The notes under the pieces are model-generated. The model worked only from the letters and a program-made list of their open reading frames with translations. It ran no database searches and was not told the origin of the DNA. A DNA stretch of 64,000 bases from a virus, in the IMG/VR virus record IMGVR_UViG_3300032213_003144, positions 96,001-160,000 of that record; one strand, written 5' to 3'. Each line of letters begins with the position of its first letter. Within the stretch, counting starts at the first letter, position 1. Both the position numbers and the translations under genes were made by a program. Shown here in pieces: positions 7,672 through 56,260 of the stretch.

Positions 7672-8232
7672 TCACCTGTCAGCATTTGGTGGCGATTCAA
7701 AGAATGGCCCAGAAATACCCTCTTTCCCGGATGGGGCCTCTATCGGGACCCATGCACGAGCATAGTTGTGTTCTTTTATCTTTCGCACTTTTATCAGACT
7801 GCTGTCAAGCATTAACGATAACTCATCAGATTTCATGCACAACATGTCATCAAAATCCTGGTTCGTGTAGCGACCTGACCGTTTCATCTCGCGAACTATT
7901 TTTGAAAGCTTTGCTGCAACAATGACAGATTTTCCTCGATTTAGCTGAATGTGCATCATCATTGCTTCTAGCTTGTCGCAATCATGGAATACAACAGGTA
8001 TACGATTGCCGTGAATTTCAGATATTTCAGAAATACTCATAAATAGGTTGTATCTCTCCGAACCATCTATTATCTCGCCAGTCTCCCTCCGTGCGTGTAT
8101 TGGGTGTATGAACCCATGCTGCATTAAGGATGAAGAAATTACGAGCAGCTCAGGTCTAATCGTGTATGTTGTCTTCCAATCTGGGATAACGAGCGAGCCA
8201 GCACTAACCCATTCAATTTTTATTTCTTTCAT
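7672..8232 (-). CDS. ParB/Srx-domain protein (IbrB-like)
   Basis: GFIHPI...EIIDGSER...LNRGK; degenerate DG(H)xR motif. Confidence 0.75.
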   Translation of the reverse strand: MKEIKIEWVSAGSLVIPDWKTTYTIRPELLVISSSLMQHGFIHPIHARRETGEIIDGSERYNLFMSISEISEIHGNRIPVVFHDCDKLEAMMMHIQLNRGKSVIVAAKLSKIVREMKRSGRYTNQDFDDMLCMKSDELSLMLDSSLIKVRKIKEHNYARAWVPIEAPSGKEGISGPFFESPPNADR

Positions 8233-9356
8233 AGTTCTAGTTCGCTTTCAATTATTCTCACTGCATTTGCTTTGGTCTTTGGTCCAACAGGGGTCGGCGA
8301 ATTAACATCTATCTCATTGAGCATGAGATTTCTTATTAACCAAGAAATCGGATATCCATATGGGTCCTGAATATGTTTTTTTCTAAACTTTGAAACATAA
8401 ACACGCGCTTCCATTTTTCTTCTATCGCCAACAAGATACTCTTCAATAAACTCAGATGCACCATCAAATCCTCTACCAGAGTATCTGGCAATAAGGCTTT
8501 CGCTGTCAAATTCAGGCCACCACCTTCGCTGCGCGTCGATGAACGGGAAGCACTCCCAAAGCCTGTCATAAAATTCTGGCTCAGTAGCAATAACATCGCC
8601 TATCCTTCTGATTGCTGTTGCATGGAGCGGTATCCCAACCCTCGTATTACTACCAGTAGCTACCGCCAAGTCGTAGTACTCACAGTATTCGGCTCCGTGT
8701 TCTTCTGTTATGAACTTAAATACGTCATTCGTATTCCAGTCATAAATTACTTTTGCAAATTTAAGAGGAATTCCAGCCTTGAGTTTATATGGAGTATTGA
8801 TGTAATTTTCGTGCAGTTTCTGGACTACGGAGCGATATCGCACCATTGACTCACTAGCCCTAACTCCTGTAAGAAACGCAACATTGCCCTTTTTACCCTG
8901 CATCGTGTAGTAGTCGGTTTGTTCAGGGAGAGACGTACTATGCGATAGACCAAAGTGGTTACCGTTGATAGCAAACTCTGGCATGTCTCTTAGCCATCTT
9001 TGCTGCTCGCCTCTTTGCTCACTCCATAGGATTGTTGTGAGCCTATATCCAAGAATCCAAATTTCAGCAGGGTATGGCAAGCAGTACCACTCCATATCAA
9101 CCCAGTCGTAGTTCCTGACCTTCTCAACGTATTCAACAACGCTTGGGCTCACCATCTCTTCGTCACGGAAAATAACTTTTACCGGACCGAGTCCTCTTTC
9201 TTCGTGCACTTCTTTGGCTAGATAGAGAATTGCTGTTGAGTCTTTCCCACCAGAAAACTGAACGCACACCGTGTCGAACTGGTCGTAGACATGCCTAATA
9301 CGCTGTCTTGCAGCATCCACGCATGTCATATCTAGGAATAATCTCTGTCTAGTCAT
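8229..9356 (-). CDS. PAPS reductase-family protein (IbrA-like)
   Basis: PP-loop FSGGKDS, GVRASES..R and IYDW motifs. Confidence 0.9.
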   Translation of the reverse strand: MTRQRLFLDMTCVDAARQRIRHVYDQFDTVCVQFSGGKDSTAILYLAKEVHEERGLGPVKVIFRDEEMVSPSVVEYVEKVRNYDWVDMEWYCLPYPAEIWILGYRLTTILWSEQRGEQQRWLRDMPEFAINGNHFGLSHSTSLPEQTDYYTMQGKKGNVAFLTGVRASESMVRYRSVVQKLHENYINTPYKLKAGIPLKFAKVIYDWNTNDVFKFITEEHGAEYCEYYDLAVATGSNTRVGIPLHATAIRRIGDVIATEPEFYDRLWECFPFIDAQRRWWPEFDSESLIARYSGRGFDGASEFIEEYLVGDRRKMEARVYVSKFRKKHIQDPYGYPISWLIRNLMLNEIDVNSPTPVGPKTKANAVRIIESELEL

Positions 9357-10162
9357 GGTGTGTGCTCTGAGATAAATGAAATTAATTTCTCAGCAACAGT
9401 GTCACCTTCCAATCCTGCGTCAGAACGTAGCCACTTTATGAACGTATACCACTCAGCTTGTTGCTGAGTGTCGTCAAAAACTATTGTGTACTGAACAACA
9501 GCCTGTGGTGCCGAGCGAGGGGAAACCGTGGTTGAACCCCTAATCACTGCGTCGTTCTGGTCGACTCCAGGACGAACATTTATTTGCTGATTTCCATCTT
9601 TGTCTTTTGTTATTGAGACGGTATTTAGGTCGACCGACGTGTCTTTCTTTACTTTTTCTTCTTCTTCTTCTTCTTTAGAAAAAATAATTGGTGGAACGTA
9701 TTTGTCCGAACCAAGAACTTGATACTCTTCCCTGATTGATGTCTGTTCAAATTCTGCAATCTCGAACTCATCCCATCCAAGACTGTCAACGAGCTCTGGA
9801 TACTCTTCGTGAATTTCAAGGATGAACTCACTTAGCAATTCCGCTTCTGTGTAGCCAAGCTCCATTGTTCTGTTGTCGGCAATAGCAAATGCAATCGCCT
9901 TCTTATTGTCAACGTCATAGCTAACTGCTGCTATCTTGTCCCATCCAAGAAGTTTTGCTGCTTCTAGCTGATGGTTACCCGCAATAACTGTTGCCGTTCC
10001 ATCGTCGTTTGGGCGAATAACAATTGGTTTTATCTGCCCAAATTCTTTATATGAAGCCATGATTGACTGGACGTTACCTTTTCTTGGGTTTCCCTCAAGT
10101 GGAACAAGTTTGTCGACATCAACAGCAAGTTGCTTTAATGATTCGTGAATTTTATCTGACAT
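9353..10162 (-). CDS. ParB/Srx N-terminal domain protein
   Basis: NPRKGN...FGQIKPI...IAGNH...AIADNRT. Confidence 0.85.
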   Translation of the reverse strand: MSDKIHESLKQLAVDVDKLVPLEGNPRKGNVQSIMASYKEFGQIKPIVIRPNDDGTATVIAGNHQLEAAKLLGWDKIAAVSYDVDNKKAIAFAIADNRTMELGYTEAELLSEFILEIHEEYPELVDSLGWDEFEIAEFEQTSIREEYQVLGSDKYVPPIIFSKEEEEEEKVKKDTSVDLNTVSITKDKDGNQQINVRPGVDQNDAVIRGSTTVSPRSAPQAVVQYTIVFDDTQQQAEWYTFIKWLRSDAGLEGDTVAEKLISFISEHTP

Positions 10163-10164
10163 AG

Positions 10165-10500
10165 TTATACCTGTGTTCTGACGTTTGCATTGAGTGTTCT
10201 CATTGCGTCAATTGATGTTCTTAGGGATAGAAGTAATTCTCTCTTCGTTTTAACTAACGCCTCTGCGCACCTGTAGTCAAAATTTTGCTCGTCCATCTTG
10301 TAGTCCGCCCAAGCTTCTCGCTCCTTGATTGAACCCTTCGCGGATAAATATTCGCGAGCCCATGTTGACTTATAGAGCGCATCTTTTTTTGCAGCGTCCA
10401 TCGCTAAGGTTTCAAATTTTTCTGTTTCTGTTTCAAGTCTGTCTATTAGTCTTATAAGCTCTTGTTCAATTTCTACCTGGCTTATGGGTGATGTTCTCAT
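10165..10500 (-). CDS. Coiled-coil protein, UvsY-like recombination mediator candidate
   Basis: Start set to ATG 10500, which overlaps the ruvC stop (TAATG); helical 111 aa; function inferred from context. Confidence 0.45.
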   Translation of the reverse strand: MRTSPISQVEIEQELIRLIDRLETETEKFETLAMDAAKKDALYKSTWAREYLSAKGSIKEREAWADYKMDEQNFDYRCAEALVKTKRELLLSLRTSIDAMRTLNANVRTQV

Positions 10501-11027
10501 TATTCCCCTTTTTTCTCGATTGGCGTCCAATCTACCTTGGCTAGGGCATCCATGTTCTGTGCCGGCCAATTAAATCGTGGTTTACCTATGTGGGCCAAGC
10601 CCATCTCCTGCAGAACCCACGCGTCACATCTGTCATCAGCTCCAGGATTTTGCCAAACAATTCCAGTACGTGCTGATATAGACGAAATCACTTCATTTTT
10701 TGATGCGTTTCCTTTTCCGGTTGCAAACTTTGCTCGACACGTTGGGGGTATCGTTACGTAGGGAATTCCAATTTGCCACAGCAGTAGGCGAATCACCCCA
10801 CCGAGCTCTCCAATAGAGAAAGCCTGACCGCTGCGTGAAGCAAACGAGTAACCCTCAAGCATGACGGCCTTTACCTCGTATCTATTGATTAGGGATTCTA
10901 TTTCCCTTTTTACTAGCCAGAGTCTTTCTGGTCCAGACTTATTAAAAGAGATAACTCCAGATTCGTCGCCAAACGCATACCCAGTTGATGTTAGGGATAG
11001 GTCTAGTCCAAGAAAATCGTTTATCAC
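10500..11027 (-). CDS. ruvC: RuvC-like Holliday junction resolvase
   Basis: LGLDLSLTSTG, MLEGY, KFATGKGNASK, DDRCDA. Confidence 0.9.
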   Translation of the reverse strand: MINDFLGLDLSLTSTGYAFGDESGVISFNKSGPERLWLVKREIESLINRYEVKAVMLEGYSFASRSGQAFSIGELGGVIRLLLWQIGIPYVTIPPTCRAKFATGKGNASKNEVISSISARTGIVWQNPGADDRCDAWVLQEMGLAHIGKPRFNWPAQNMDALAKVDWTPIEKKGE

Positions 11028-11044
11028 AGTGACATACTAACCTA

Positions 11045-11085
11045 AAAGCAAAAACCCACCGAACATCCAGCGAGTTCGGTGGGTT
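11045..11085 (-). terminator. Intrinsic terminator
   Basis: 12-bp perfect inverted repeat 11053-11064 / 11074-11085, followed by U-rich sequence on the - strand. Confidence 0.8.
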
Positions 11086-11198
11086 AAATTCGAACCGTTT
11101 GCGGCGGCTCAGAATCATTGCCGTGTAGGAACACTCGACTCTTGGACCACCGCCTTTCTTCCGTGAAGGGTAGATATCGGCTAGACGAATTAAGGTTA
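11045..11198 (-). ncRNA. Predicted structured small RNA with a 16S 3'-end complement
   Basis: -10-like TAACAT at 11210-11205; closing stem AAUUCG(ucu)AGCCG / CGGUUCGAAUU; contains AGAAAGGCGGUGGUCCA; ends in a terminator. Confidence 0.55.
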
Positions 11199-11254
11199 GC
11201 ACTTATGTTATGCACTAATAAGTGAAGAGCTTTTAAATAATGTTCCACTAAAGT

Positions 11255-11298
11255 AAAAAACGCAAAAGCCGAGTGAGTCTCCCCACCCGACTTTCGCG
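11255..11298 (-). terminator. Intrinsic terminator with GNRA loop
   Basis: CGCGAAAGUCGGGUGGG-GAGA-CUCACUCGGCUUUUGCG-UUUUUU; fully paired only on the - strand because of four G-U pairs. Confidence 0.85.
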
Positions 11299-11318
11299 CC
11301 TATAACGGTCCTAAGAAT
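11255..11318 (-). ncRNA. Predicted ~60-nt RNA antisense to 23S rRNA helix 69
   Basis: -10-like TATCGT at 11328-11323; then CUUAGGACCGUUAUAG (11315-11300); then a 17-bp hairpin with GAGA loop and U6. Confidence 0.65.
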
Positions 11319-11374
11319 TACAACGATACACCCGTACTAAATAGTGAAAGTGTTAATTATAAAACTATAAATAA

Positions 11375-11716
11375 TTATCTTTCCCAGCCATGTTTTGCTA
11401 ACCCTAAATCAAACGCAAGTTGAGGGTAATTACCAATTCTTACGTGACACAGCCTGCAAACTGCAAGTACATTTTCCTCATCAAGTATGGAGCCACCCTG
11501 AGAGCGTCTGATTATTTCGTGAACATCCCTACTGAGATGTTGGTTGTATGTCGTCTTGCCGTCGTGAGTTGCAAAAACTTTACAAGCCTCGCATGCCGGT
11601 CTTTCCCTTAGTATTTTTTCAACAAACTTACGCCGTTCGACATAAATCTCTTCGGTTTTTGCACTTCTTTTTTTAGGAGGGCCACTTCTCTTGATTGGTT
11701 TGTTTCTTCGAATCAT
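11375..11716 (-). CDS. HNH endonuclease
   Basis: CEAC...DVHEII.RSQGG...ENVLAVCRLCH. Confidence 0.85.
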   Translation of the reverse strand: MIRRNKPIKRSGPPKKRSAKTEEIYVERRKFVEKILRERPACEACKVFATHDGKTTYNQHLSRDVHEIIRRSQGGSILDEENVLAVCRLCHVRIGNYPQLAFDLGLAKHGWER

Positions 11717-14299: not shown

Positions 14300-15613
14300 C
14301 TAGAGCAGTATAGAAACTTTTCTCCTCTGAGGCAACCCCAGGCCAGTTAAAAATGTGAAAGCTCCAGTAGCGGAGTCAACCTGGTCGTCGTGGTCGCAAG
14401 ATTCAGGAAAAGACGAGAATTCGTCTAGCCAGTTGGATAGCCATGGAGCCCTAACGACCCTCACGTTTCCATTTGCAACAGCAGCCGCGAATGGTCTTGC
14501 TCTGGTTTCTTTATCTCCAGTTGACCGTATTGCGGAGAAGTCATAGCCAGGAAGGACGTATCTTGCGTACTGGTCGGCTAGGGCCTTGCCAGACGAGCCT
14601 GGTTCCTGCTCCATTCGTATCGCCACGCCATGCCCGTCCTCTAGTGCTGTTTGGGCTAGAAGCTGCTCAACCTTCTCTCCTCGGACACGGGCTCTCCGTA
14701 CGTCAAGAACGTAGGATATGCCCTCATCAAGCAGCATAAGGGTCCCTACGGTCCAGTCAGGGTCAGGGTTTGAAGATGTTGGCTCTGATGCTGCCAAGTC
14801 CCAGAATCGAACAACTCGCGCAGAACTGGTTATTGGAGGGAGTTCGGCCGAATCAATGATAACGAACCCTGTTCTATCAAATAGGGTGCCGAGCGTTGTG
14901 CTCCACCAGTCGCCCTCCTCTAGTCGTCTGCGTTCAATTGGGTCTAGGGCCTGAAGGGCTTGGCGATATGAAACAGCATCAATTCCTGGGTTATCTGTCA
15001 GTTTTGAAGGAACGAAGATTCTCCCCTCCTGGCGGCCCTCAACGATAAATCGCTGCCTAACCCAATTGGGTGCTGGGTTTGAGGCACATCGCATTCTAAG
15101 GGGAATCTGAGAAACTGGTCCGCTATTTGGACGGCGCAATCGTGAGAAGAGGTATCTATAGTCTGACTCTCGTATTTCAGTGACTTCATCCATCCCTATA
15201 AATTGGAACTCTGAACCCTTATAACGAAGGTAGTCATTGACATTGTTCAGGTAACCGAAAGATACCCTGGCTCCAGATGGGAAGGTAGCGATAAACGTAT
15301 TGCTATTCCAGTGGATGTCATCGTAGTTTGCCATCCATGTCTTGAATCGGTCCATCAACGCTCCAGGGAGCGACAAGTCAGCAAAAGTTCTACGGAAGAG
15401 AATTGCCGAATAACCAGGAATATCTACGTATTGAAGTGCCGACATTAGTAGTGCTGAAGATTTGCCACCACCAGCAGCGCCTCCAAAAAGGGCTTCAAGT
15501 GCGTGCGTTCTGAGAAAAACCTTTTGATTGAGTGATGGCTCCTCAGGACAGAACGGAGTCTCCTTTGGCGTGAGGTACTTAAGCACCTCGTCCCAATTTG
15601 GTTTATTAGCCAT
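14300..15613 (-). CDS. terL: Terminase large subunit
   Basis: Walker A GGAAGGGKS, Walker B IGMDE, coupling motif ASNP, nuclease WDLA and HDDQVD. Confidence 0.95.
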   Translation of the reverse strand: MANKPNWDEVLKYLTPKETPFCPEEPSLNQKVFLRTHALEALFGGAAGGGKSSALLMSALQYVDIPGYSAILFRRTFADLSLPGALMDRFKTWMANYDDIHWNSNTFIATFPSGARVSFGYLNNVNDYLRYKGSEFQFIGMDEVTEIRESDYRYLFSRLRRPNSGPVSQIPLRMRCASNPAPNWVRQRFIVEGRQEGRIFVPSKLTDNPGIDAVSYRQALQALDPIERRRLEEGDWWSTTLGTLFDRTGFVIIDSAELPPITSSARVVRFWDLAASEPTSSNPDPDWTVGTLMLLDEGISYVLDVRRARVRGEKVEQLLAQTALEDGHGVAIRMEQEPGSSGKALADQYARYVLPGYDFSAIRSTGDKETRARPFAAAVANGNVRVVRAPWLSNWLDEFSSFPESCDHDDQVDSATGAFTFLTGLGLPQRRKVSILL

Positions 15614-18046: not shown

Positions 18047-21000
18047 TTGGTTCCAAAAATGTCAAATGAAGCATTCGAATACAAGTCATCGGCGCACGGC
18101 TCTCAGTCCATCAAAGGAACGGTCAGCCTAGACGAGGCCCAGGGGATAGTCGAATGTTTCGTAGCTGGAATTGGTAATAAAGACTCAGTCGGAGACGTAT
18201 GTGCTTCAGGAGCCTTCACAAAGAGCCTTCTTCGCAGAAAGCCAAGAGTTGTATGGGGCCACAACTGGAATGACCCTATTGGTAAAGTATTGGAAATATA
18301 CGAGGTTGGTCCACAGGACCCACGCCTCCCACTGAAAATGAAACTTGCCGGGATAGGCGGTTTGTTTGCAAAAGTTCAATTTAATCTAAGTTCAGAAAAA
18401 GGAAAAGAAGCATTTGCTAATGTCCACTTTTTCGGAGAAGAACAAGAGTGGTCGATTGGATACAAAACACTAAGAGCTCAGTTTGACCAAAAGTCGCAAG
18501 CAAATATTCTTTACGAAGTTGAACTCTACGAAGTTAGCCCTGTTCTCCACGGAGCCAATCAGCTAACAGGAACAATATCCGTTAAGGCAGATGATTCCGC
18601 CTACGGAGGTTCAGTAGCAATGATGCCGCAAAGAGAAGAGAGCAACGGCTACGAAGAAATGGAGAAGGAACTCTCCAATCTATTCGGTGCAAAAGTTTCT
18701 GTTCATTCAATCGATGGCGACGAGGTCGTATTCACACGCCAAGAGATGAACGGTGCGAAGAAGTACAAGTGCGGCTTCATGAGAAATCAAGGCCGATACA
18801 TGTTCGGAACTCCTGAAGTAATCAATATTCCGCAGTCCCCAGTTCGTTCTCCTCAATCAGCACCAATGCCTGTGGTGAGCGGAAGACCTACTCCACCCAA
18901 CGACCCACAACGCGTCATTAGACCACAACAGATGCCTTCAATACCAGTTGCGATTAAGCCAAGCGACAATGGGCTAATGATGATTCCTCTTCCAGCTGTT
19001 CAGTATGACTCAAACGAAAAGCCGTCCCTGGACAAGGAGGAAGCAGACCTCCGTGATGCGCTGTTAAAGATAGTTTCACGCCACGGCAAATTTAACGAAG
19101 ACTCTAACGGCGTATGGGCTGGATACAGCCCTGCAGAAGAAAACGAAGTAGCACGTATCGGTGTTAAATGCTCAAACTGCGTCTTCTATCAAGGCGGCTC
19201 AAAGTGCAAAATTATTGACATGCCAGTTGAGCCAGAAGGGAAATGCAGATTTGCTGTTATTCCAAATGGGATTGTTTTGAGCAGTGGTTCCAAAGAACTC
19301 GAAGAGCATGTTTCCGAAGCAGAAAATGCAATCATCGATGTACTAGAACTAAAATACCCAGGCGAGTTTGTTCTTGGAATTGTCAGAAATGCAGTTGGTA
19401 AGAAAAAGAAGAAAAGAAATAAATACAAAAATCTTTCAGAGTTTGGTGATGACGACGACATGGGTGAAAAGTCGTACGTAATACCAGTCGAGCCAAGTTT
19501 TGCATTTAGAGTAAAAACAGCCCTTGACCCAATATTCGATTACCACAGAGCAGAGACTTTTGTTGACTCAGAAGGAATAGTGATTACCTCTGGGGTAACT
19601 GAAAATCTCATAGACGCAGTCGATACGGCTCTTCACAACTTAAAAAAAAAATTCTCAGAACATGAAATAGAGGGAAAATCCCTCGGTTACAGAATAGGTC
19701 GGTCGCTTGGTTCGAGGCTCGTAGATAGACCAAACCTCGGTGGTGGTAGGGATAGAAACAACCGTGGCGGCGGTCGTGGATTCGGGATGCCGGATGGCGA
19801 CCTTGACCCCAGGACAAGAGTTGACAAGAATAGGGATGGAACACTTTTTGATAATGTCCCAGGATGGGAACAGCCAGACCCAACCCCAGATGGACCTGGT
19901 TCGATAAATAACCGAAAACTCTCTTCCTCACAAAGAAGAGATGTTGCCAATATTCCGAGCGAGAGCGTAAACCCAGAATCGGTAGACGGTGACGTAATAA
20001 AGAGCCGCAAACCAAGGTATACGGCTGATGACCTTGGTGAAATCCTTGGAGAAAAGAAGAAGCCAACGAAGAAGGCAGTAGCAAAAAAATCTCCTGTTAA
20101 AAAAGAAAAAGTAAAGCGTGGAGAACTTGATTTCGCTAAGGGTCCCAAAAAAGATAAGACACCATCACTATCCTCTGGTGAGGAAAGACCGCCACGTACT
20201 GCAGTTGCAATGCAGATGGACCCAAAGAATTCGAAGCTTGCAAGACAGATTGATTACGACCCACAGAATGGTGACCTCACTGTTTATTACAGAGATGGCA
20301 AAAAAGAAACATTCAATGATGTTCCTTATGACCGCGTGCGTAAGGCTGGATTTGACGACAAGCCAGATGCATTAATCAGTGCACTACAGAGAGAACAAAA
20401 GAAACCACAAGGCAGGATTAGTCTTGCATCTGGGGAGCAAGAAAAGAGACTTACCCGCCACTCTGGTGACCCAAAATTTGAATCACTTGTATCTCCAGAA
20501 GAACTTGAAAAGCGTAAGAAGTTTGAAGAAGTAATTAAAGACTGGAAAGACTCTGGTTACGGATGGGAAGACGTTCCTAGATACAAGCCAGACGTCTACA
20601 AGTCCCCGGATTATTTGCGTGGTAGGGAAATGGGCGTCAATCAGGCCAAAGTTATGTGGCGTGGAGATAGCACGGTAGAGAGACCAAAGGGATTCAACGA
20701 AAAGCAAAAAGCCTCACTTGATTATCAAGAGTGGTATTCACGAATGGTGATGAGGGCTGGAGCTTTTCTAGAAGCATCACGTGGCGATGACAACGAATTC
20801 TACAACGGCATGGAAGATGCCATGCATGAATTCATGTACAACAATAGACCAGATATAACAACCTACAACATCGATGGAGATAGAAAAGAACCGATGGCCG
20901 ACTGGATGCGTCAGTACGGATTCGACCCAGGCTCACCGACTCCATTAAGAAAGAAAAAAGAAGGAAAGAAGAGAAGTTCACTCTCCCTCTCTTCTGGCGC

Positions 21001-24000
21001 AGACGACGATACAAGACCAAACTTTGATGAAGAGAATTACGAAAGTGATACCAACGTAGATTTCTACGACACCCTTCTTGACATGATGGGCCCAGAAGAA
21101 GAAAGACCAAAAGTCACTTCTCGCAAAAAGCCAAAAGACATGAGTGATGAAGAGATTTATCGCAAGAGAACAACAACCGGAGCATCCCTGCAGGATGTTG
21201 CGGAAGAACTTGGTCTAACTAGAATGGAAGTTAGGAAGCGCGAACAACGACACATGCGCAAAATGCGCAATGAAAAAGACGGCGTATCACTTTCTTCTGG
21301 AGCAAGCGATGACTGGGCCACTTCTAGGGGATACGAGCCAGACAGATTCGACCTTCGCGAAACGATGAATCAAATTGGTAGAGGAAACATAATGGCCATA
21401 TCTGGTGGCCGCGTTGAGCGTAGAGGGAATGAAATGATTCTTCCTTCTACAAAAGACCAGCAAGTAGTCATCGGGTACAACTCGGTTCCAGACCTCTACT
21501 ACGTCAGAGCTGAGCAGAAAATAAATACAGGTAAGGACAAGGGAACCAACAGAATTCTTGCGCAATGGGACGAGGTTTATGCTGACGAAATTGGCGAACT
21601 CGCATATCAGGCAAGTCTCAAGCCAGCAAACCTCAATAGTGAGAACAAGGAGTACTGGAAGCTCGGCAAGGGAAATCAATTTGCAGACAGACTCGTTGAT
21701 AGACGTAGCGGAAAGCTCGTAAGCAGAGAATCAAGAAATCTTCCATCAAAGCCAGCGCCAGAGGAAAGCCCAACTCTTTCTTCGGGTGGCAGAGGTCGTG
21801 ACTACTACAACTACGACATAACAACAACCGATGAAGGAAATGGATTACTCGACCAGGTGCATGATTACCTTGAAGAGAACCCCCTAATCAAAGATGACAT
21901 AACAACCGATATTGCAGACATGCTCGGTGGAGATGGAATAGTTGAGGCTAATGGCTTTGACACAAAAAAGGCATTTGACCTGGTTACTGGTGGAGACGAT
22001 GAGTTCCAGGATTATATGGACATCGTTGATGATGCCATGGAGGCCCTAAGTAATGGCTCCCTAGCAAAGCACAAGGCAACCGTTCGCGATACGAATGTAA
22101 GACTTGAGTCAGCAAAGCCAGGCAGTAATGAAGCAGGAAAACTCGAAGCAATCCGTGATAGGTCGTACGAGTGGATTGGCGACATAAACAAGTATTCACG
22201 CGTATCCACAATTAAAGATAAGAAGAATATTGAAGCCAGCGACGTGGCAACAAGAATGATTTCCAAAGAGCAAGATTCGCTCTGGAATGCTCGCGCGTCA
22301 ATAACAGAAAAATATATTGAAGATATTGCTTCAGCTGGAAAAGAATCAAAGCGCCGTGTATCAATCAGCGCAGTAGATACAGACTCTCGCGACATTCCAG
22401 AGTATGATTTAGCTCTCTCGTCTGGCAGTGTTTTTAAGGATAAACCAGCATCAAAAACGCTTTCCGGTAAGGCTGATGGCCTTTCTCTTGCCTCTGGAGA
22501 AAATAAAAAGATTTATGACGAAATAGGTAAGTCCATTCTTGAGGCATTAATTGAGATGGATAAGAACCCAACAGCAACCTATTGGGACGTACCGTGGAGA
22601 ACACCAACCCTATACGCAAGAAACCCAACAAAGAATCGCCTTTATCAGGGAATGAACTCCCTACTGCTTGCCAATGCGCATAGGCAGAATAAGTACAGAG
22701 GAAATTTCTGGGCCGGGAAGACTCAGTGGGCAAAGTTCGGTGGAACAATAAAGAATGGCAAGGATGGAGTAAATATCCTTGTTCCAAGAGAGGGTTCAAC
22801 CGGAAAATACTTTGTCGTACAGACCGTATATAACCTCGATGATATTGAAGGGCTCCCAGATGCATATGTAAAGAAGCTTCTAGATACAGGAAAGGAACTT
22901 CTTGACCCAGCGACAAAGATAAAGGACGCCGAGTCGGTAATGGAGGAAATTAATCCTGTCATCAAGTTTGGCGGAGATGCTGCATACTTCTCAATTACGA
23001 ATGACCATATTCAAATGCCACCATACGAGATGTTTAAGTCTCCAGAGCAGTACTACTCAACCCTACTGCATGAGCTAACACACTGGACTGGCGGAAAGTC
23101 TCGTCTTGGAAGAAAGCAGGTAGGCCGCCAACAGGACAAGAAGGCTTATGCATACGAGGAATTAATTGCAGAAATGGGTTCTTCTTTCCTTCTTGCCGCA
23201 CTTGGCATCGCACCAGAAGTAAGACAAGACCACGTTGTTTATATCAAGAGTTGGATTTCCAACCTTCGCGAGGACCCGGGTGCATTCGTTAGAGCAATGA
23301 CTGAGGCGCAGCAGGCGGCAGACTGGGTCATGGATAGGTCTCCAACAATGAGAAGACTTTCCGGTGTACCTGATAGCGAAAGAAAAGGAAAGCCAGATGC
23401 GGTTGATGCTGGGGAATCCGCAGTCTCAGAAGTAGTTGAAGAGACTAAGGGCTCTGTTACAGCACTCTCATCCGGCTCTCAAGTTGGATTAAGGAAAGCA
23501 AAAGAACTCAGATACTTTGGCGATGAAAAAGAATATGGCTCAGGCATAACTCAAAGAGACTCCAGTGGAAGGATTCTTGATGAATCTGGAGCACTTTCTC
23601 TTTCAAGTGGTGCAAAACCAATCGTCAGCCTTGACGGTAAAACAACGATTCCAAGACTAGACGACTCTGTCTCGTATAGAGAAAAGTATAAGTTCCTTCC
23701 TGATGAATTTGAACCAACAGAACAACAAAAGGCTTCAATAGACACGCTTGTTCATATGCTTGAAAGTGAGACACCAGGGATTGTCGCTATTGGTGCTGGT
23801 GCTGGTTCAGGAAAGACAACCAACCTTAAACAGAATGCTCGTGCAGTTGCCGCACTTTACCCTGGAAAACAAATTTATTACACCGTATTCAATAGAGGAA
23901 ATGCTAAAGACGGAAACAGGGTGATGCCTAGAAATACAGGTGTTGCAACTGGGAACCAAATAGCATATTGGTCACTTGTTCTTGGAACTGGAGACGCCTT

Positions 24001-27000
24001 CTATGGTGCTGGAACAACCAGAAAGATACAACTCGGAGTTGGTCCAAGAGACTCCAAGAAGTTGCGAGGAGCAAAACGTAACACCGTGAACGTTGCAACC
24101 ACGTTTGAGGGAGAAACAAAGGAATTCGCAGGAGAGATACCAGGGTACAGAGAGCTTGGGTACACAAGCTATGACTCTGCACCGAATATCGCAGAACGCC
24201 TTGCTAAAGATGGGATTGTTGACGAAGAAACTGATGATGGTTTTACTATTTCCCAAAATCTCAAAAAAGCTCTTGGCAGGTTTGCTGAAAGCTCGGATGA
24301 GAAGCTGTCAAAACAACATTTCCTACTTCGTGATATAGAGAAAATTCAGGCATTACAAAATGGTGAACCAGTACCAACTGAAGATTCAATCGATGAAAAA
24401 ATGGTTCAATATGCACAAATGCTTTGGGATGAAACAGTTGACCCAAAATCAAACGTGCTTATCCCGCAGGACTATCAAATCAAGATGTGGGCCCTAACAA
24501 ATCCAGACCTTAGGTATGACAAAGGACTGATTGGTCACAGGCCAAACGAAACAGTGTTTGATAAAGTTTTTCTTGGAACCGTTGAGGAAATGAACTCCGG
24601 AAAAATAAAAGTCGGAGACCTTGTAGAATTTAAAATTCCAGAAACTGGAGAAAAAGTTGCAGCAGTAATACGAAAACTAAACCCTCCATCAAAGAAAGAA
24701 ACAAAAAAGGGTGAGCTATCTGGCAGTAGACAAGTAACCGGAACTGTATCGATTGTTTCTGTCACGAGTGATAAGCCTCTTGATGTGTTCATGTTCGACG
24801 AGGCCCAAGACGTAAACCCTGTGTTGGCAAAAGTACTCGCCGATAATGCAAAGAACATGCCGATAATAATGGTTGGCGACTCACGCCAAGCAATCTATGG
24901 GTTCAGAGGAGCCATGGATGCCCTGGAGAAAGCTAATGCAACATTCAGACTTCCTCTAACACGTTCATTTAGGTATGGAGCAATCCCTGCATATTTAGCC
25001 AATGTCGTGCTGATGCAAGGCAATATAGACGATTTTAACTTTTATCAAAACATGGGAACACCCGAAAAAAACATATGGCACCATGTTGTAGGAGAGGCGC
25101 AAAATGTTGTTATAAACGCGCTCAACATAAACGGACCAGATGGGAAAATACTTCCTAAAAAAGAACTTGAAAAGAAACTTAAATTCATAGAAGTTAAATA
25201 CAAACTTGGCGGAAGAGCTGTCGACTTTAAGGGCAAAAACGAAAAAGAAGTAAAAGACATCATTTCAAAACTTTACGACGAACATGTCCCACGCGCTGAA
25301 GGTCAGATAGTTGAGGACATGACTAGTGCTGATGCTGTTCTAACTTCTACCAACTCCGGAGTAATGGTCGAAGCCTTGAAGGTAATCCAGGACGGTATTA
25401 ATGCACATCAAATCGCGTATCTCGACCTAGATGGAATAGAAGATATAAAAAATCCAGAAGAGCTAGCTGGAAGACTAAGAACATTATCCGAGAAATACAC
25501 TCTTGATGGTGTTGCTGTAGACCTTATAGAAATATTGGAAAAAGATGGTAGAGATTCAATGCTCAATGCCGTCAATGAACTTAGAGAAGAATATGCTCCA
25601 GGTGGAGCTGACGGGAAAATACCAGCCATTGGCATACCTGCCGACACACATGAAAAGTTTCTTGATTTCTTCACTCAACTCGACTGGATTATTGGTGACC
25701 TTGATAAGAAGTTTGGAATCGAAGGAAGACCAAAACCATCTAAACTACTTAAAGACGTATGGAGATTTGATAAGAAAAAGGGCAGATACCCATCAAAAGA
25801 TGAGATGCTGGCAAAAATTGACAAGATGATTAAGGGTGGAGAATCAGAACTTCGCACGCTTTACAACCTTGCTTACCCCAAGTCCAAGGATGGAGGGGTA
25901 AGAGGTGATGCAAAAGGGGCAAGATTCTTTAAAGACCTTTTACGTCCACAAGGCCAAAAATATACTGACATAAATGGAACTGAGGTTAAGTACCAAGGCC
26001 TTAGACCAATGCGTGAAGGAATCAATCTTCCGAATATGGAATCTGGTCGAGACCACATAACTACCGAAGAGATGGACAGAGTCGGAAAGCTTAAGCCTGG
26101 AACAAAATCTGGAAGCAGCCAAAAAATTTCCTGGATAATACCCAAGAAGGAAGAGAGCGTATCTGATGGTGAGGTATTCGTAAAACTTCACATCGGAGAA
26201 AACGGAAAGCCATCTGGAGCGTTGATAATTGCAGGCGATGGAGCGCACGGAGGAAAGTACAAAGTCAGAAGATGGAATAAGGCCAAGAAAACCTGGAGCC
26301 CAATCGAAGAGGGGAAACCAGGGAAGATTGACTACCACGGTGATATATCAAAAGTTATAAAAAAGATGAAAGCTGAATACCCAGACGCCGTAATTGAATT
26401 TAGGCAGGGACTAATACAGCAAGTTGGTACAGCTCAGACATTCCCATCAGACATATCTGATGATTTTGTCCCACCAATGAAAGGTGATTTGCCAGATAGT
26501 TCTGTGCCAAGAGCTTCGCTTCCAGGGTTCTTCATACAAGGAAAAGACAGCGAAGAAACTGCGCGTCTTGCCAATGAACTCGGAAACAGGGTTAGACAAC
26601 TTGCCACGGAAGGAAACACGGATACCGACATTATGACGGTTCATGTTTCCAAGGGCAGGGAGTGGAAGAGGGTCAGACTCGCTGATGATTTCAAAAATCC
26701 TGAAGACATGGTCCCAGTAATACCAGAAGAAGAATTAGCAAAGTTAAGTCCAAAGGACAGACTTGCTGTCGAGAGACAGCTCCAATTGATGCGCAGAGAA
26801 GAGCACAACAAGGTATACATTGCAATAACCAGAGCTCAAGAGCAAATAGATATTGGCGCAGTTCTTGCAAAACTTTATTTTGATGATTCACAAAACGCAT
26901 CTATAAAAAGTGCAAAAGATAAAATTGCAGAAAATCCAGATGGAATATATGACGAGCTTCAGGCTCCTGCTGGTTTCTATGTTCCGTATTCTGGTGATAC

Positions 27001-29131
27001 AGAAGCACGCGATGCTGCCAGAAAAGAACGCAGAAAGAGATTGGATGAGTCTTTCGATAGATACGTCAAGTCACAAGGAAAGACCAAAGATGTCGCTCCA
27101 GAAGAAGATGATGAACCAGAGGTGGAGGACGAATCTGGCGGTTTTGACTCTGGTGACCCTGATTTTGTTGATGTTGCTGGACCTGATGATGATGGAGCTG
27201 AAGAATTCGACGAAGAAGATGGCGACGTGCAGTCACTCTCCCTTTCTTCAGGAGCAAAGAAGAAGAAAACCAATAGGGCAAATAGGCGTCTTCCATTTAG
27301 TGAGCAAGAGAGACAAAGCCTTGCCGATGGAGACATATTGCGCTCAAAGAAAATACCCAAGAAGCGCAAACCAGCTCCGTCAAAAGAGGAGTTTGACGAC
27401 CTAGCTCTTGCCTCTGGAGCCAATACACCAGAGGGAAGATACGCCAGAAGACTGAGGTCGATAAGCCTTTCCAGCGGCAACAATGAGCTTGGCGCTGGAG
27501 CACAGAATCAAAGAATAAGTGGAAAGAGATTCGCCCGCAATATTTCCGGACCAAAAGACCTTGCATCGATAAGAGTTGATGGTGACCCAAGTAAAGACCC
27601 AAACGCAAAGAGAAAAATTGAATATGCGATGAGTTTCTGGCGTGGTGTCAGGGAACGCGGAATTGCTTTTGACCCCCAAGACGCATCACAAGATAGAAAG
27701 TCGATAGAAATTAATAACGCCATTTCTTCTGTGTCAAAATCCATGGCTACGCGACCAAAAGCCAAAATTGGTAAAGTTTCACAGAATCAAATAAAAGATG
27801 ATGTGAACCCAGACGAGTGGTTTGTCCCAGTATCAAAACTTAGGGATGCAATCAGAATTCCAACAGAATTCTCCAACTCCCCCGCGGACCCATCCAATCC
27901 AAATAGCAGAATGATTGCACGATGGACCCAAACAAGGCCATTAAGCAACGAAGAGTTGGGCAAGATGCTCTCTCTCAGCAAGACCGACATTGCAAAACTG
28001 TCAGACGATGATGCAGGAATAACCCACGACTCGGTTAGATTCCTGCTTGCGGCCATGGGGCAGCAGGAAGGTTTTGAGGCATGGAACTTTTTTGCTCCAA
28101 CATCTACTACCGAAGATGGAGTTTCCGCCATGTCTACTTCTGAGAAGTTCGTAGAGAATCTCGGAAGAGCCAACATGCGAGACAGGTTCATCATCGAAAC
28201 CTTTGGAAAAGACGCTTTCCCTTACTGGATTGACAAAGATGAGAATACCGTCATCGGCCAAAAGGAGTACTCATCGCTAGGCGAGGTCAGCGAGATGTCG
28301 AAGTTCAGGTCATCGGGTCTGTTTAGTAATAAGAGGAACGAATCAAACTTCTCCTCAACAGCCGAGGAGATGCTTCTTGAAGAGGCAGTATTTGGTGGAG
28401 ATGACACTCCAAGCGACATGGTTAAGCAGTCTGTCGTGGAAGCAGCTTCAGCCCCATCAGACAAGACCAGCCGAGAGCAGTTTGACGTAGACCAGCTCCT
28501 TGAGTCGTTGGGTATCGATAAGAGTGATAAGTGGCATGAAGAGCTGAAGAGGAGAATGGTCGAGTCTTTCGGGGTTGACGATGTCGGCCTGAATACGAGA
28601 GAGATTGCTAGAAACTGGGAGGCCGGTGGAGTCCCAACTACATACATAAATGAGATGATTAGAACAGGGATGATTCCTGATGCAAAGTCGGTATGGAAGA
28701 AAGATGAATCTGGCAAAAAGCTAGACCAAGAGCTGGCAGCATCTAAGCACTCCGTGTATGAAGCCCTGTATGAATTTACTCAGTCAAAGCACGCTGCTGA
28801 TAAAGCCAAAAACACTAGACGGAATAGGGACTACATCCTTAATTCTTCTGACTTCACGGTCTCCCATAAGGGTGTCGCTGCCAGAAAGGGAGCCACATTC
28901 TCAAAGAAAACTGGTGATGAAAGAAGATTCAGTCAGGGCGAACTACAGAATGTTGTAAATCGTTTTAATGAAATTTTTGGAACTAACTACAAGATTGATG
29001 ACATCTTTAGTGCTGAACAGTTGCGCAATGCAACAAAGAGATTGAGAGAGGAAGGCAGGACTCTGTATGGAGATGACGCCTCCGAACTCGGTAAAAGAGT
29101 TATCCTTAAGAAAGATAAAGACAAGAAGTAA
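18047..29131 (+). CDS. Giant prohead protease (HK97 family) fusion carrying KTSC, HTH, ArdC-zincin and SF1 (UvrD-like) helicase domains
   Basis: Protease: WGHNWNDPIG, WSIGY, EVSPVLHGAN. KTSC-like: IDYDPQNGDLTVYYRDG. ArdC-like: PWR..LYQGMN..LLHELTHWTG..YAYEELIAE. Helicase: AGAGSGKTT, DEAQD, VGDSRQAIYGFRGA, TVHVSKGREW, YIAITRA. Start may be ATG 18059. Confidence 0.9.
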   Translation: MVPKMSNEAFEYKSSAHGSQSIKGTVSLDEAQGIVECFVAGIGNKDSVGDVCASGAFTKSLLRRKPRVVWGHNWNDPIGKVLEIYEVGPQDPRLPLKMKLAGIGGLFAKVQFNLSSEKGKEAFANVHFFGEEQEWSIGYKTLRAQFDQKSQANILYEVELYEVSPVLHGANQLTGTISVKADDSAYGGSVAMMPQREESNGYEEMEKELSNLFGAKVSVHSIDGDEVVFTRQEMNGAKKYKCGFMRNQGRYMFGTPEVINIPQSPVRSPQSAPMPVVSGRPTPPNDPQRVIRPQQMPSIPVAIKPSDNGLMMIPLPAVQYDSNEKPSLDKEEADLRDALLKIVSRHGKFNEDSNGVWAGYSPAEENEVARIGVKCSNCVFYQGGSKCKIIDMPVEPEGKCRFAVIPNGIVLSSGSKELEEHVSEAENAIIDVLELKYPGEFVLGIVRNAVGKKKKKRNKYKNLSEFGDDDDMGEKSYVIPVEPSFAFRVKTALDPIFDYHRAETFVDSEGIVITSGVTENLIDAVDTALHNLKKKFSEHEIEGKSLGYRIGRSLGSRLVDRPNLGGGRDRNNRGGGRGFGMPDGDLDPRTRVDKNRDGTLFDNVPGWEQPDPTPDGPGSINNRKLSSSQRRDVANIPSESVNPESVDGDVIKSRKPRYTADDLGEILGEKKKPTKKAVAKKSPVKKEKVKRGELDFAKGPKKDKTPSLSSGEERPPRTAVAMQMDPKNSKLARQIDYDPQNGDLTVYYRDGKKETFNDVPYDRVRKAGFDDKPDALISALQREQKKPQGRISLASGEQEKRLTRHSGDPKFESLVSPEELEKRKKFEEVIKDWKDSGYGWEDVPRYKPDVYKSPDYLRGREMGVNQAKVMWRGDSTVERPKGFNEKQKASLDYQEWYSRMVMRAGAFLEASRGDDNEFYNGMEDAMHEFMYNNRPDITTYNIDGDRKEPMADWMRQYGFDPGSPTPLRKKKEGKKRSSLSLSSGADDDTRPNFDEENYESDTNVDFYDTLLDMMGPEEERPKVTSRKKPKDMSDEEIYRKRTTTGASLQDVAEELGLTRMEVRKREQRHMRKMRNEKDGVSLSSGASDDWATSRGYEPDRFDLRETMNQIGRGNIMAISGGRVERRGNEMILPSTKDQQVVIGYNSVPDLYYVRAEQKINTGKDKGTNRILAQWDEVYADEIGELAYQASLKPANLNSENKEYWKLGKGNQFADRLVDRRSGKLVSRESRNLPSKPAPEESPTLSSGGRGRDYYNYDITTTDEGNGLLDQVHDYLEENPLIKDDITTDIADMLGGDGIVEANGFDTKKAFDLVTGGDDEFQDYMDIVDDAMEALSNGSLAKHKATVRDTNVRLESAKPGSNEAGKLEAIRDRSYEWIGDINKYSRVSTIKDKKNIEASDVATRMISKEQDSLWNARASITEKYIEDIASAGKESKRRVSISAVDTDSRDIPEYDLALSSGSVFKDKPASKTLSGKADGLSLASGENKKIYDEIGKSILEALIEMDKNPTATYWDVPWRTPTLYARNPTKNRLYQGMNSLLLANAHRQNKYRGNFWAGKTQWAKFGGTIKNGKDGVNILVPREGSTGKYFVVQTVYNLDDIEGLPDAYVKKLLDTGKELLDPATKIKDAESVMEEINPVIKFGGDAAYFSITNDHIQMPPYEMFKSPEQYYSTLLHELTHWTGGKSRLGRKQVGRQQDKKAYAYEELIAEMGSSFLLAALGIAPEVRQDHVVYIKSWISNLREDPGAFVRAMTEAQQAADWVMDRSPTMRRLSGVPDSERKGKPDAVDAGESAVSEVVEETKGSVTALSSGSQVGLRKAKELRYFGDEKEYGSGITQRDSSGRILDESGALSLSSGAKPIVSLDGKTTIPRLDDSVSYREKYKFLPDEFEPTEQQKASIDTLVHMLESETPGIVAIGAGAGSGKTTNLKQNARAVAALYPGKQIYYTVFNRGNAKDGNRVMPRNTGVATGNQIAYWSLVLGTGDAFYGAGTTRKIQLGVGPRDSKKLRGAKRNTVNVATTFEGETKEFAGEIPGYRELGYTSYDSAPNIAERLAKDGIVDEETDDGFTISQNLKKALGRFAESSDEKLSKQHFLLRDIEKIQALQNGEPVPTEDSIDEKMVQYAQMLWDETVDPKSNVLIPQDYQIKMWALTNPDLRYDKGLIGHRPNETVFDKVFLGTVEEMNSGKIKVGDLVEFKIPETGEKVAAVIRKLNPPSKKETKKGELSGSRQVTGTVSIVSVTSDKPLDVFMFDEAQDVNPVLAKVLADNAKNMPIIMVGDSRQAIYGFRGAMDALEKANATFRLPLTRSFRYGAIPAYLANVVLMQGNIDDFNFYQNMGTPEKNIWHHVVGEAQNVVINALNINGPDGKILPKKELEKKLKFIEVKYKLGGRAVDFKGKNEKEVKDIISKLYDEHVPRAEGQIVEDMTSADAVLTSTNSGVMVEALKVIQDGINAHQIAYLDLDGIEDIKNPEELAGRLRTLSEKYTLDGVAVDLIEILEKDGRDSMLNAVNELREEYAPGGADGKIPAIGIPADTHEKFLDFFTQLDWIIGDLDKKFGIEGRPKPSKLLKDVWRFDKKKGRYPSKDEMLAKIDKMIKGGESELRTLYNLAYPKSKDGGVRGDAKGARFFKDLLRPQGQKYTDINGTEVKYQGLRPMREGINLPNMESGRDHITTEEMDRVGKLKPGTKSGSSQKISWIIPKKEESVSDGEVFVKLHIGENGKPSGALIIAGDGAHGGKYKVRRWNKAKKTWSPIEEGKPGKIDYHGDISKVIKKMKAEYPDAVIEFRQGLIQQVGTAQTFPSDISDDFVPPMKGDLPDSSVPRASLPGFFIQGKDSEETARLANELGNRVRQLATEGNTDTDIMTVHVSKGREWKRVRLADDFKNPEDMVPVIPEEELAKLSPKDRLAVERQLQLMRREEHNKVYIAITRAQEQIDIGAVLAKLYFDDSQNASIKSAKDKIAENPDGIYDELQAPAGFYVPYSGDTEARDAARKERRKRLDESFDRYVKSQGKTKDVAPEEDDEPEVEDESGGFDSGDPDFVDVAGPDDDGAEEFDEEDGDVQSLSLSSGAKKKKTNRANRRLPFSEQERQSLADGDILRSKKIPKKRKPAPSKEEFDDLALASGANTPEGRYARRLRSISLSSGNNELGAGAQNQRISGKRFARNISGPKDLASIRVDGDPSKDPNAKRKIEYAMSFWRGVRERGIAFDPQDASQDRKSIEINNAISSVSKSMATRPKAKIGKVSQNQIKDDVNPDEWFVPVSKLRDAIRIPTEFSNSPADPSNPNSRMIARWTQTRPLSNEELGKMLSLSKTDIAKLSDDDAGITHDSVRFLLAAMGQQEGFEAWNFFAPTSTTEDGVSAMSTSEKFVENLGRANMRDRFIIETFGKDAFPYWIDKDENTVIGQKEYSSLGEVSEMSKFRSSGLFSNKRNESNFSSTAEEMLLEEAVFGGDDTPSDMVKQSVVEAASAPSDKTSREQFDVDQLLESLGIDKSDKWHEELKRRMVESFGVDDVGLNTREIARNWEAGGVPTTYINEMIRTGMIPDAKSVWKKDESGKKLDQELAASKHSVYEALYEFTQSKHAADKAKNTRRNRDYILNSSDFTVSHKGVAARKGATFSKKTGDERRFSQGELQNVVNRFNEIFGTNYKIDDIFSAEQLRNATKRLREEGRTLYGDDASELGKRVILKKDKDKK

Positions 29132-55927: not shown

Positions 55928-56260
55928 ATGAATAGCTCTGAAGTATCGGCTAAACCACCAAAGAACGGCAAGTGTCTCGGCTATGACCCAAATATTTTTT
56001 TCCCGTTTGCGGAAAAATCCGGAGACTCCTATTCGCGGAGTTATGTAAGAGGAAGAGAAAATACGATTCTCGCAAAATCAATATGCAAAGAATGCCTCGT
56101 TTCGGAAGAGTGTCTTCAGTACTCATTGCTTCACGAACCGCACGGAATCTGGGGTGGCAAAACGGAACGAGAAAGAAAGACTCTGAGAAGAAGACTTGGT
56201 GTGTCGCTAGTACCGAAAGAGCCAATAAATATTTTGCTCGGATTTAAGTTCGGGGGCTAG
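55928..56260 (+). CDS. whiB: WhiB-family transcription factor
   Basis: C...FFP...AKSICKEC.V..EC...GIWGG.TERER. Confidence 0.93.
   Translation: MNSSEVSAKPPKNGKCLGYDPNIFFPFAEKSGDSYSRSYVRGRENTILAKSICKECLVSEECLQYSLLHEPHGIWGGKTERERKTLRRRLGVSLVPKEPINILLGFKFGG

Follow-up and report, generated by a model that had tools for sequence, protein, structure and literature searches.

A conserved structured RNA of lake phages carries an interrupted complement of the 16S rRNA 3' end and may dock on host ribosomes

The window analysed here comprises 64,000 nt (bases 96001-160000 of a 170,425-bp IMG/VR virus record), and coordinates refer to it unless the record is named. The - strand carries an array of genes for a terminase, a Rad52-like protein, a PD-(D/E)XK exonuclease and an HNH endonuclease, then a gap, then genes for a RuvC-like resolvase, ParB and a PAPS-reductase-like protein. 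The 347-nt intergenic gap between the HNH and RuvC-like genes harbours two predicted small RNAs, sRNA1 and sRNA2, the former 70 nt upstream of the latter, and is split by two - strand intrinsic terminators (11301..11258 and 11084..11049). The features of the region are:

14300-15613, - strand: large terminase gene
11375-11716, - strand: HNH endonuclease gene (113 aa)
11251..11315, - strand: sRNA1, about 65 nt, beginning with 5' CUUAGGACCGUUAUAG, the exact complement of 23S rRNA 1914-1929 (helix 69, H69), followed by a 20-bp terminator hairpin
11193..11226, - strand: promoter-like region of sRNA2, with an extended -10 element TGCTAACCT (TAACCT at 11198..11193) and TT(C/T)ACT (11226..11221) 22 nt upstream
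11045..11185, - strand: sRNA2, a predicted transcript of about 141 nt, starting about 7 nt past the -10 box and extending to the U-tract
11159..11143, - strand: complement of the 16S 3' tail, AGAAAGGCGGUGGUCCA, forming 15 Watson-Crick pairs, one G-U pair and one central C.U mismatch
11184..11180 with 11071..11067, - strand: pseudoknot formed by 5' CUAGC and the GCUGG loop of the terminator, 97.5% paired, one compensatory pair
11123..11134, - strand: internal hairpin GUGU-UCCU-ACAC with conserved flanks UCUAG and GGCAA, 95% paired, two compensatory pairs
11101..11108, - strand: masking strand GCCGCCGC, pairing with GCGGUGGU (11153..11146) and covering the 3' half of the motif in MFE folds
11049..11084, - strand: terminator ACCCACCGAAC / GUUCGGUGGGU plus U-tract, 99.3% paired, four compensatory pairs
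11039..11034, - strand: TAGTAT -10 box of the RuvC-like gene, 6 nt before its GTG; box and spacing are kept in relatives
10500-11027, - strand: RuvC-like resolvase gene, GTG start at 11027

A split RuvC gene or a group I intron around the HNH gene is ruled out, the RuvC N-terminus with its catalytic GLDLS motif being intact. The ParB and PAPS-reductase-like module lies downstream of the RuvC-like gene (8229-10162, - strand), and a + strand block contains two giant ORFs (18047-29131, 3694 aa, and 30945-39044, 2699 aa). The region has no cultured relatives among 50,697 phage records, and a search of the phage for a bS21 gene found none. The phage genome encodes two WhiB-family proteins (record 33260-33451, - strand, and window 55964-56185, + strand); this is the main clue that the host of the clade is probably an actinobacterium.

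Relatives recovered with the RuvC-like protein comprise 80 loci from lake viral contigs (57-97% protein identity), and in 64 of these a homologous sRNA2 unit precedes the RuvC start by 115-165 nt. The order of its parts is kept: a TT(C/T)ACT hexamer, 22 nt, TGnTAnnnT, about 7 nt, 5' UCUAGCC, the 16S-complementary motif, the internal hairpin between UCUAG and GGCAA, a variable arm and the terminator. Downstream of the terminator, relatives show TA(G/A)T(A/G)T, 6-7 nt and the GTG or ATG of the RuvC-like gene. Both upstream elements are kept across lineages in the alignment, and the conserved TGnTAnnnT points to a promoter role. At both small RNAs (11193-11226 and 11323-11356, - strand) the -35-like hexamer (TTCACT and TTAACA, respectively) lies 22 nt before the -10 element rather than about 17, and such promoters may represent a phage-specific class.

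In the window, sRNA2 has an MFE of -54.4 kcal/mol (z -3.8). With a putative promoter, an intrinsic terminator, a conserved structure and no ORF, it shows the general attributes of a trans-encoded sRNA gene. Conservation, covariation, the terminator and the -10 box thus bear out the original prediction of a discrete, structured, non-coding unit on the - strand, including its claims of a -10 box of its own (11198..11193, with conserved TGnTAnnnT) and of a terminator. The prediction had extended the RNA to 11210, whereas its 5' end most likely lies near 11185. A 16-codon GTG ORF, also proposed, is present in the window and is not conserved in relatives. No conserved ORF was found in sRNA2: 15 of 26 distinct sequences lack a start codon at 3-15 nt past GGUGG, and the remainder encode unrelated peptides of 2 aa to more than 30 aa. 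The suggested alternative of a small-peptide mRNA therefore fails, most relatives having no start at Shine-Dalgarno (SD) distance and the others differing in the peptide.

The checks proposed with the prediction included an Rfam search and covariation in related phages. The Rfam 15 covariance models gave no family match in the window or eight relatives: no hit reached the gathering score, and those at E <=10 were noise. Covariation, counted over 26 distinct sequences (alignment A1), supports the terminator, the internal hairpin and the pseudoknot. Overall, 90.4% of cells in A1 pair, against 31-43% when partners are slid by 1-3 columns. The predicted internal hairpin is present and covaries, its stem appearing as GUGU/ACAC, GUAGC/GCUAC, GUGG/CCAC or GUGA/UCAC. 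The ends of the RNA do pair, as had been claimed, in the form of the pseudoknot with the terminator loop rather than as a simple closing stem; here CUAGC:GCUAG changes to CCAGC:GCUGG, with U-A replaced by C-G in three sequences. A small hairpin immediately 5' of the motif is 53% paired in fixed register, and its register shifts among lineages. Because G-U pairs occur in the conserved helices, the transcribed strand is the - strand.

The predicted masking of the motif by a GCCGCC is seen in the window (11108..11101), and most lineages have a CCACC-like strand in its place. Equivalents include CCACC, CCGCC, CCACCUG and CUGCCUG, with pairing kept in each, whereas the arm is absent from lineages L067, L083, L097 and L105. 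In MFE folds of 10 lineages, GGUGGU(C) is paired with downstream CCACC, CCGCC or CUGCC, and AGAAAG is free; within the motif of the window RNA, bases of the 5' half are unpaired with a mean probability of 0.47 and those of the 3' half with one of 0.14. Since the motif is invariant, covariation does not tell its internal pairing from external pairing.

The + strand at 11143-11159, TGGACCACCGCCTTTCT, agrees with the canonical 16S end except at 2 of its 17 positions, and AGAAAGGCGGUGGUCCA would pair with UGGAUCACCUCCUUUCU, the 3' end of actinobacterial 16S rRNA. Three named actinobacterial 16S genes (...GCGGCTGGATCACCTCCTTTCTAAGG) and four small Actinomycetota genomes (1.3-1.5 Mb) supplied the reference end, TGGATCACCTCCTTTCT. 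The near-perfect complement described originally, with 15 of 17 positions matching and one of the two differences retained as G-U in the - strand RNA, is confirmed. Matches with at most three mismatches are expected by chance 0.24 times per window, and 21 of 100 shuffles contain at least one; at most two mismatches are expected about 0.01 times per window by our own estimate. A single 16S match in 64 kb is by itself only suggestive, and it is conservation that carries weight.

The motif is the most conserved part of the unit across relatives, in keeping with its place at the centre of the original prediction. Columns A27, G28, A30, G33 and G35-U40 are invariant in A1, where mean identity is 68%. 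Variants among relatives are AGAAGGG (A to G opposite U), GGC-A-GGUGG, GGCGGGUGG, GGUGGUGG and AAAGCAGGUGG; the extra A in GGC-A-GGUGG restores AGGUG and bulges the C. The changes either replace A by a G that still pairs with U or insert an A; therefore, pairing with the 16S tail is kept. The GGAGG core is never intact: each of the 26 distinct sequences has GGCGG, GGC-AGG, GGUGG or AGC-AGG in its place, and the interruption is always C, except for U in one case. In every lineage, the motif is the site at which the most stable duplex with the 22-nt 16S end is predicted (-22.9 to -29.7 kcal/mol), compared with about -17 to -19 kcal/mol (sd about 2.7) for dinucleotide shuffles.

The exact 17-mer is found too in unrelated gut-phage contigs. 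With two positions left free, the gut class reads UAGAAAGG-C-GGUG(A/G)UCCAAUAUCU and is complementary at 18 of 19 positions to the Firmicutes-type 16S end, with the same central C. The element begins at the UAG stop of an upstream ORF in all three loci checked and, across the class, is joined to differing flanking modules (scaffold, Prp-like protease, holin and lysin). Because it recurs with different modules, the string appears to function on its own, apart from the helices of sRNA2; the gut element may be a STAB-SD-like or ribosome-retention element. As a portable gut-contig element, UAGAAAGGCGGUG(A/G)UCCAAUAUCU(C/U)CC occurs in L002, L004, L007, L011, L019, L023 and L280-L291, always with GGCGG in place of GGAGG. 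In L023, a skipping-rope RNA (RF02924, 59 bits, positions 938-1017) lies about 100 nt upstream of it. Bacterial copies of the 17-mer were set aside: the 65 matches in 596 Gb are about what chance would give by our own estimate and lie in unrelated coding contexts, except for one Gemmiger prophage.

The neighbouring sRNA1 is complementary to the other ribosomal subunit. The + strand at 11300-11315, CTATAACGGTCCTAAG, is identical to Escherichia coli 23S 1914-1929, which covers the loop and 3' strand of helix 69, the core of intersubunit bridge B2a. This is the sole rRNA match of at least 16 nt in the phage genome, with 0.3 expected. A -10 box, TATCGT (11328..11323), precedes the seed by 7 nt, and the hairpin has a z of -6.1. 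The 16-mer is the same in nearly all RuvC relatives, the exceptions being one A-to-G change, which keeps a wobble pair, and one U-to-C change. More than 119 viral contigs contain the 16-mer extended by one base, together with widely differing, strongly covarying hairpins. The RuvC-like gene lies downstream of sRNA1 in about 81 of 95 informative loci and the HNH gene upstream in 63, and sRNA2 follows sRNA1 in about half of 75 newly fetched seed-bearing loci screened. Because sRNA1 complements H69, ribosomes are a plausible target of sRNA2 as well. A duplex between the two RNAs was rejected, their only pair being GGACC/GGUCC, which is not conserved.

Both putative rRNA targets are found in candidate host-like genomes. 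Of 201 Actinomycetota genomes sampled, 75, the small ones among them, have a CGGUCC stem in H69, and 16 genomes, most of them large, have CCAUCC; nothing claimed here rests on G091, an unpublished genome within the group of 75. The large-genome actinomycetes have a different H69, CUAUAACCAUCCUAAG, and small genomes typical of lake actinobacteria combine the CGGUCC-type H69 and the canonical 16S tail in one operon.

The original prediction also supposed that the phage has leaderless mRNAs, and the RuvC-like gene and about 24 others, with a TANNNT box 6-7 nt before the start, fit this premise. Of 193 phage genes, 24 have a TANNNT (often TAGNNT) whose first base lies 12-13 nt ahead of the start codon, compared with 0-4 at neighbouring offsets, which suggests that many first genes of the phage, the RuvC-like gene included, are leaderless. 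The box of the RuvC-like gene has the geometry expected for leaderless mRNAs, and sRNA2 is thus separate from the RuvC leader. An SD of at least 4 nt precedes 82 of 193 phage genes (42%), compared with a 13% background.

SD-like elements that do not initiate translation are known. Two of them, STAB-SD in the cry3A mRNA of Bacillus thuringiensis (Agaisse and Lereclus 1996) and the 5' stabiliser of phage SP82 (Hue et al. 1995), are SD-like and non-initiating and are thought to hold 30S subunits, as reviewed in PMC4113751 and PMC7509114. Like sRNA2, they are non-initiating complements of the 16S 3' end, and SP82 is a phage of a Gram-positive host. STAB-SD, however, acts in cis from the 5' UTR of a long mRNA, has an intact GGAGG (GAAAGGAGG) and blocks RNase J1, whereas sRNA2 is a free-standing, terminated and pseudoknotted RNA without a gene, has a 15-17-nt complement with a constant C and is partnered by an anti-H69 RNA. 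It therefore shares the SD-like complement of STAB-SD and has neither the intact core nor the coding part of a stabilised mRNA.

Small mRNAs of roughly 165 nt are transcribed from the rreB and rreR genes of Alphaproteobacteria, and 16-17 nt of each are complementary to the 16S tail. The reading frame of rreB opens with GTG, and experiments have shown that the RNA binds 30S (Hahn et al. 2017, PMC5711450). In rreB, as in the predicted folds of sRNA2, the 5' end of the complement is single-stranded and the remainder lies in a hairpin. The rre genes are cellular and have a conserved sORF immediately behind the extended SD and a perfect complement, whereas sRNA2 is viral, has no conserved sORF and no Rfam match, and its complement is cut by the constant mismatched or bulged C into stretches of 7 and 7-8 nt, not the at least 16 uninterrupted nt of an rre. 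Because its core is interrupted and it has neither an mRNA to stabilise nor a conserved sORF, sRNA2 falls outside both families. The Val-tRNA fragment of Haloferax (PMC5711459) is likewise a small RNA proposed to act on the small subunit by competing with mRNA; it is a processed piece of an archaeal tRNA, and its reported action does not depend on Watson-Crick pairing to the anti-SD tail.

Our best explanation, held tentatively and at slightly less than an even chance, is that sRNA2 is a start-less RNA that docks on the host 16S tail, akin to STAB-SD and the rre small mRNAs. Whereas the gene, its fold, its conservation and its complementarity are established, we infer the binding and any effect on translation. 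Several observations count for docking: the discrete - strand unit in 64 of 80 loci, with an invariant motif and no ORF; the near-invariant 16/16 complement of H69 in sRNA1; the presence of both rRNA targets in one operon of small, candidate host-like Actinomycetota; the free 5' and masked 3' halves of the motif, which mirror rreB; motif variants that keep the pairing, and a duplex prediction that favours this site in all lineages; the same 18-19-nt complement with its central C in an unrelated gut-phage element; and the precedent of the start-less STAB-SD as a 30S binder (PMC4113751). Other points count against it, namely the interrupted GGAGG core and the self-paired 3' half of the motif in most lineages, the 42% SD use by the phage itself together with the expected large excess of ribosomes over the sRNA, the unfolding of helix 69 that pairing in a mature 50S subunit would require, and the different H69 (CCAUCC) of some Actinomycetota.

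Under the docking reading, the unpaired AGAAAG in the 5' part of the site would act as a toehold, and the 16S tail would then displace the internal helix in which the 3' part, GGUGGUC, sits. The constant C within GGAGG and the missing start codon would stop the bound 30S subunit from initiating. Together, sRNA2 and sRNA1 may form a two-RNA, ribosome-directed module in WhiB-carrying freshwater phages, which would probably dampen or re-route SD-dependent initiation or subunit joining. The original prediction went further and envisaged a decoy that sequesters 30S subunits and spares leaderless phage mRNAs. The SDs of 42% of the phage genes count against such sequestration, as does the finding that rreB overproduction did not slow growth, ribosomes outnumbering rreB RNA (PMC5711450).

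A possible, rather doubtful extension is that the two RNAs are an antisense pair, in which sRNA2 clamps the 16S anti-SD and sRNA1 clamps H69, so that host ribosomes are reprogrammed or disabled by RNA-rRNA pairing. Host takeover by an antisense RNA pair against both ribosomal subunits was not found in the literature searched.

It is unlikely that sRNA2 uses the 16S tail only as a STAB-SD-like stabiliser, with a 30S subunit on the block protecting the transcript against 5'-to-3' degradation by RNase J while the real job resides elsewhere, in the UCUAG/GGCAA loop or the pseudoknot, and involves some other partner. Start-less SD-like elements do work in this way in Gram-positives, as in STAB-SD and the SP82 stabiliser, 27 nt separate the block from the predicted 5' end, and further invariant positions (U48, A51, G52, C63, G65 and A67) are compatible with a function outside the block. 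There is, however, no coding sequence to protect, the RNA ending at a strong terminator about 100 nt further along; the core through which STAB-SD acts, GGAGG, is broken in sRNA2; and the adjacent anti-H69 RNA is left unexplained.

A role as a cis attenuator of the RuvC-like operon is quite unlikely. GGUGG would alternate between the CCACC-like arm and the 5' half of the terminator (CCACC/CCGCC), tuning read-through, and its SD likeness would be incidental. The RuvC-like gene does follow the unit in nearly all loci, and the block complements both the masking arm and the 5' strand of the terminator (6-7 bp in the window, L067 and L097, partly by our own reading). The terminator strands covary with each other, however, and not with the block, and, since the RuvC-like gene lacks an SD and is preceded at leaderless distance by a conserved -10 box of its own, a read-through transcript would be poorly translated. 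Attenuation also leaves unexplained the AGAAAGG half, the exact 16S register and the same string in unrelated gut phages.

More improbable is an ordinary sRNA that pairs with a C-rich sequence in some mRNA or sRNA of the host or the phage, its 16S match being a by-product of a G-rich seed. Many sRNAs act on mRNAs, and the promoter and terminator architecture would suit one; yet the block begins exactly where pairing with the 16S 3' end starts and, at 15-17 nt, is longer than usual seeds, and the 170-kb phage genome contains no further site for the motif with at most three mismatches. That the block is an over-long SD for the peptide of the 16-codon GTG ORF, in an rre-type small mRNA, is very improbable: size, extended SD and GTG start do resemble rreB, and in the window lineage the GTG lies 12 nt past GGUGG, whereas 15 of 26 sequences have no start codon, the GTG where present is part of a hairpin stem and the peptides are unrelated.

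Further candidates were rejected. A tRNA-like or Y-RNA-like reading of GGUUCGAAU is not conserved in relatives and has no ARAGORN or Rfam match. For a 5S-rRNA-like origin (GGUGGUC, CCGAAC), searches of the window and eight relatives at E <=10 yielded no 5S match. The helices misfit, by eye, an HDV-like or twister ribozyme and a C/D-box guide, which also have no Rfam matches. A cos site or homing-endonuclease site leaves the -10 box, the U-tract and the strand-specific G-U pairs unexplained.

Whatever their function, the two RNAs add two uncatalogued families, each represented in many dozens to more than 100 lake viral contigs. In tandem with the anti-H69 RNA, sRNA2 offers a concrete hypothesis, that two short natural antisense RNAs are directed against the anti-SD and bridge B2a. 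If sRNA2 docks on the 16S tail as proposed, phages would act on ribosomes with small RNAs too, besides proteins.
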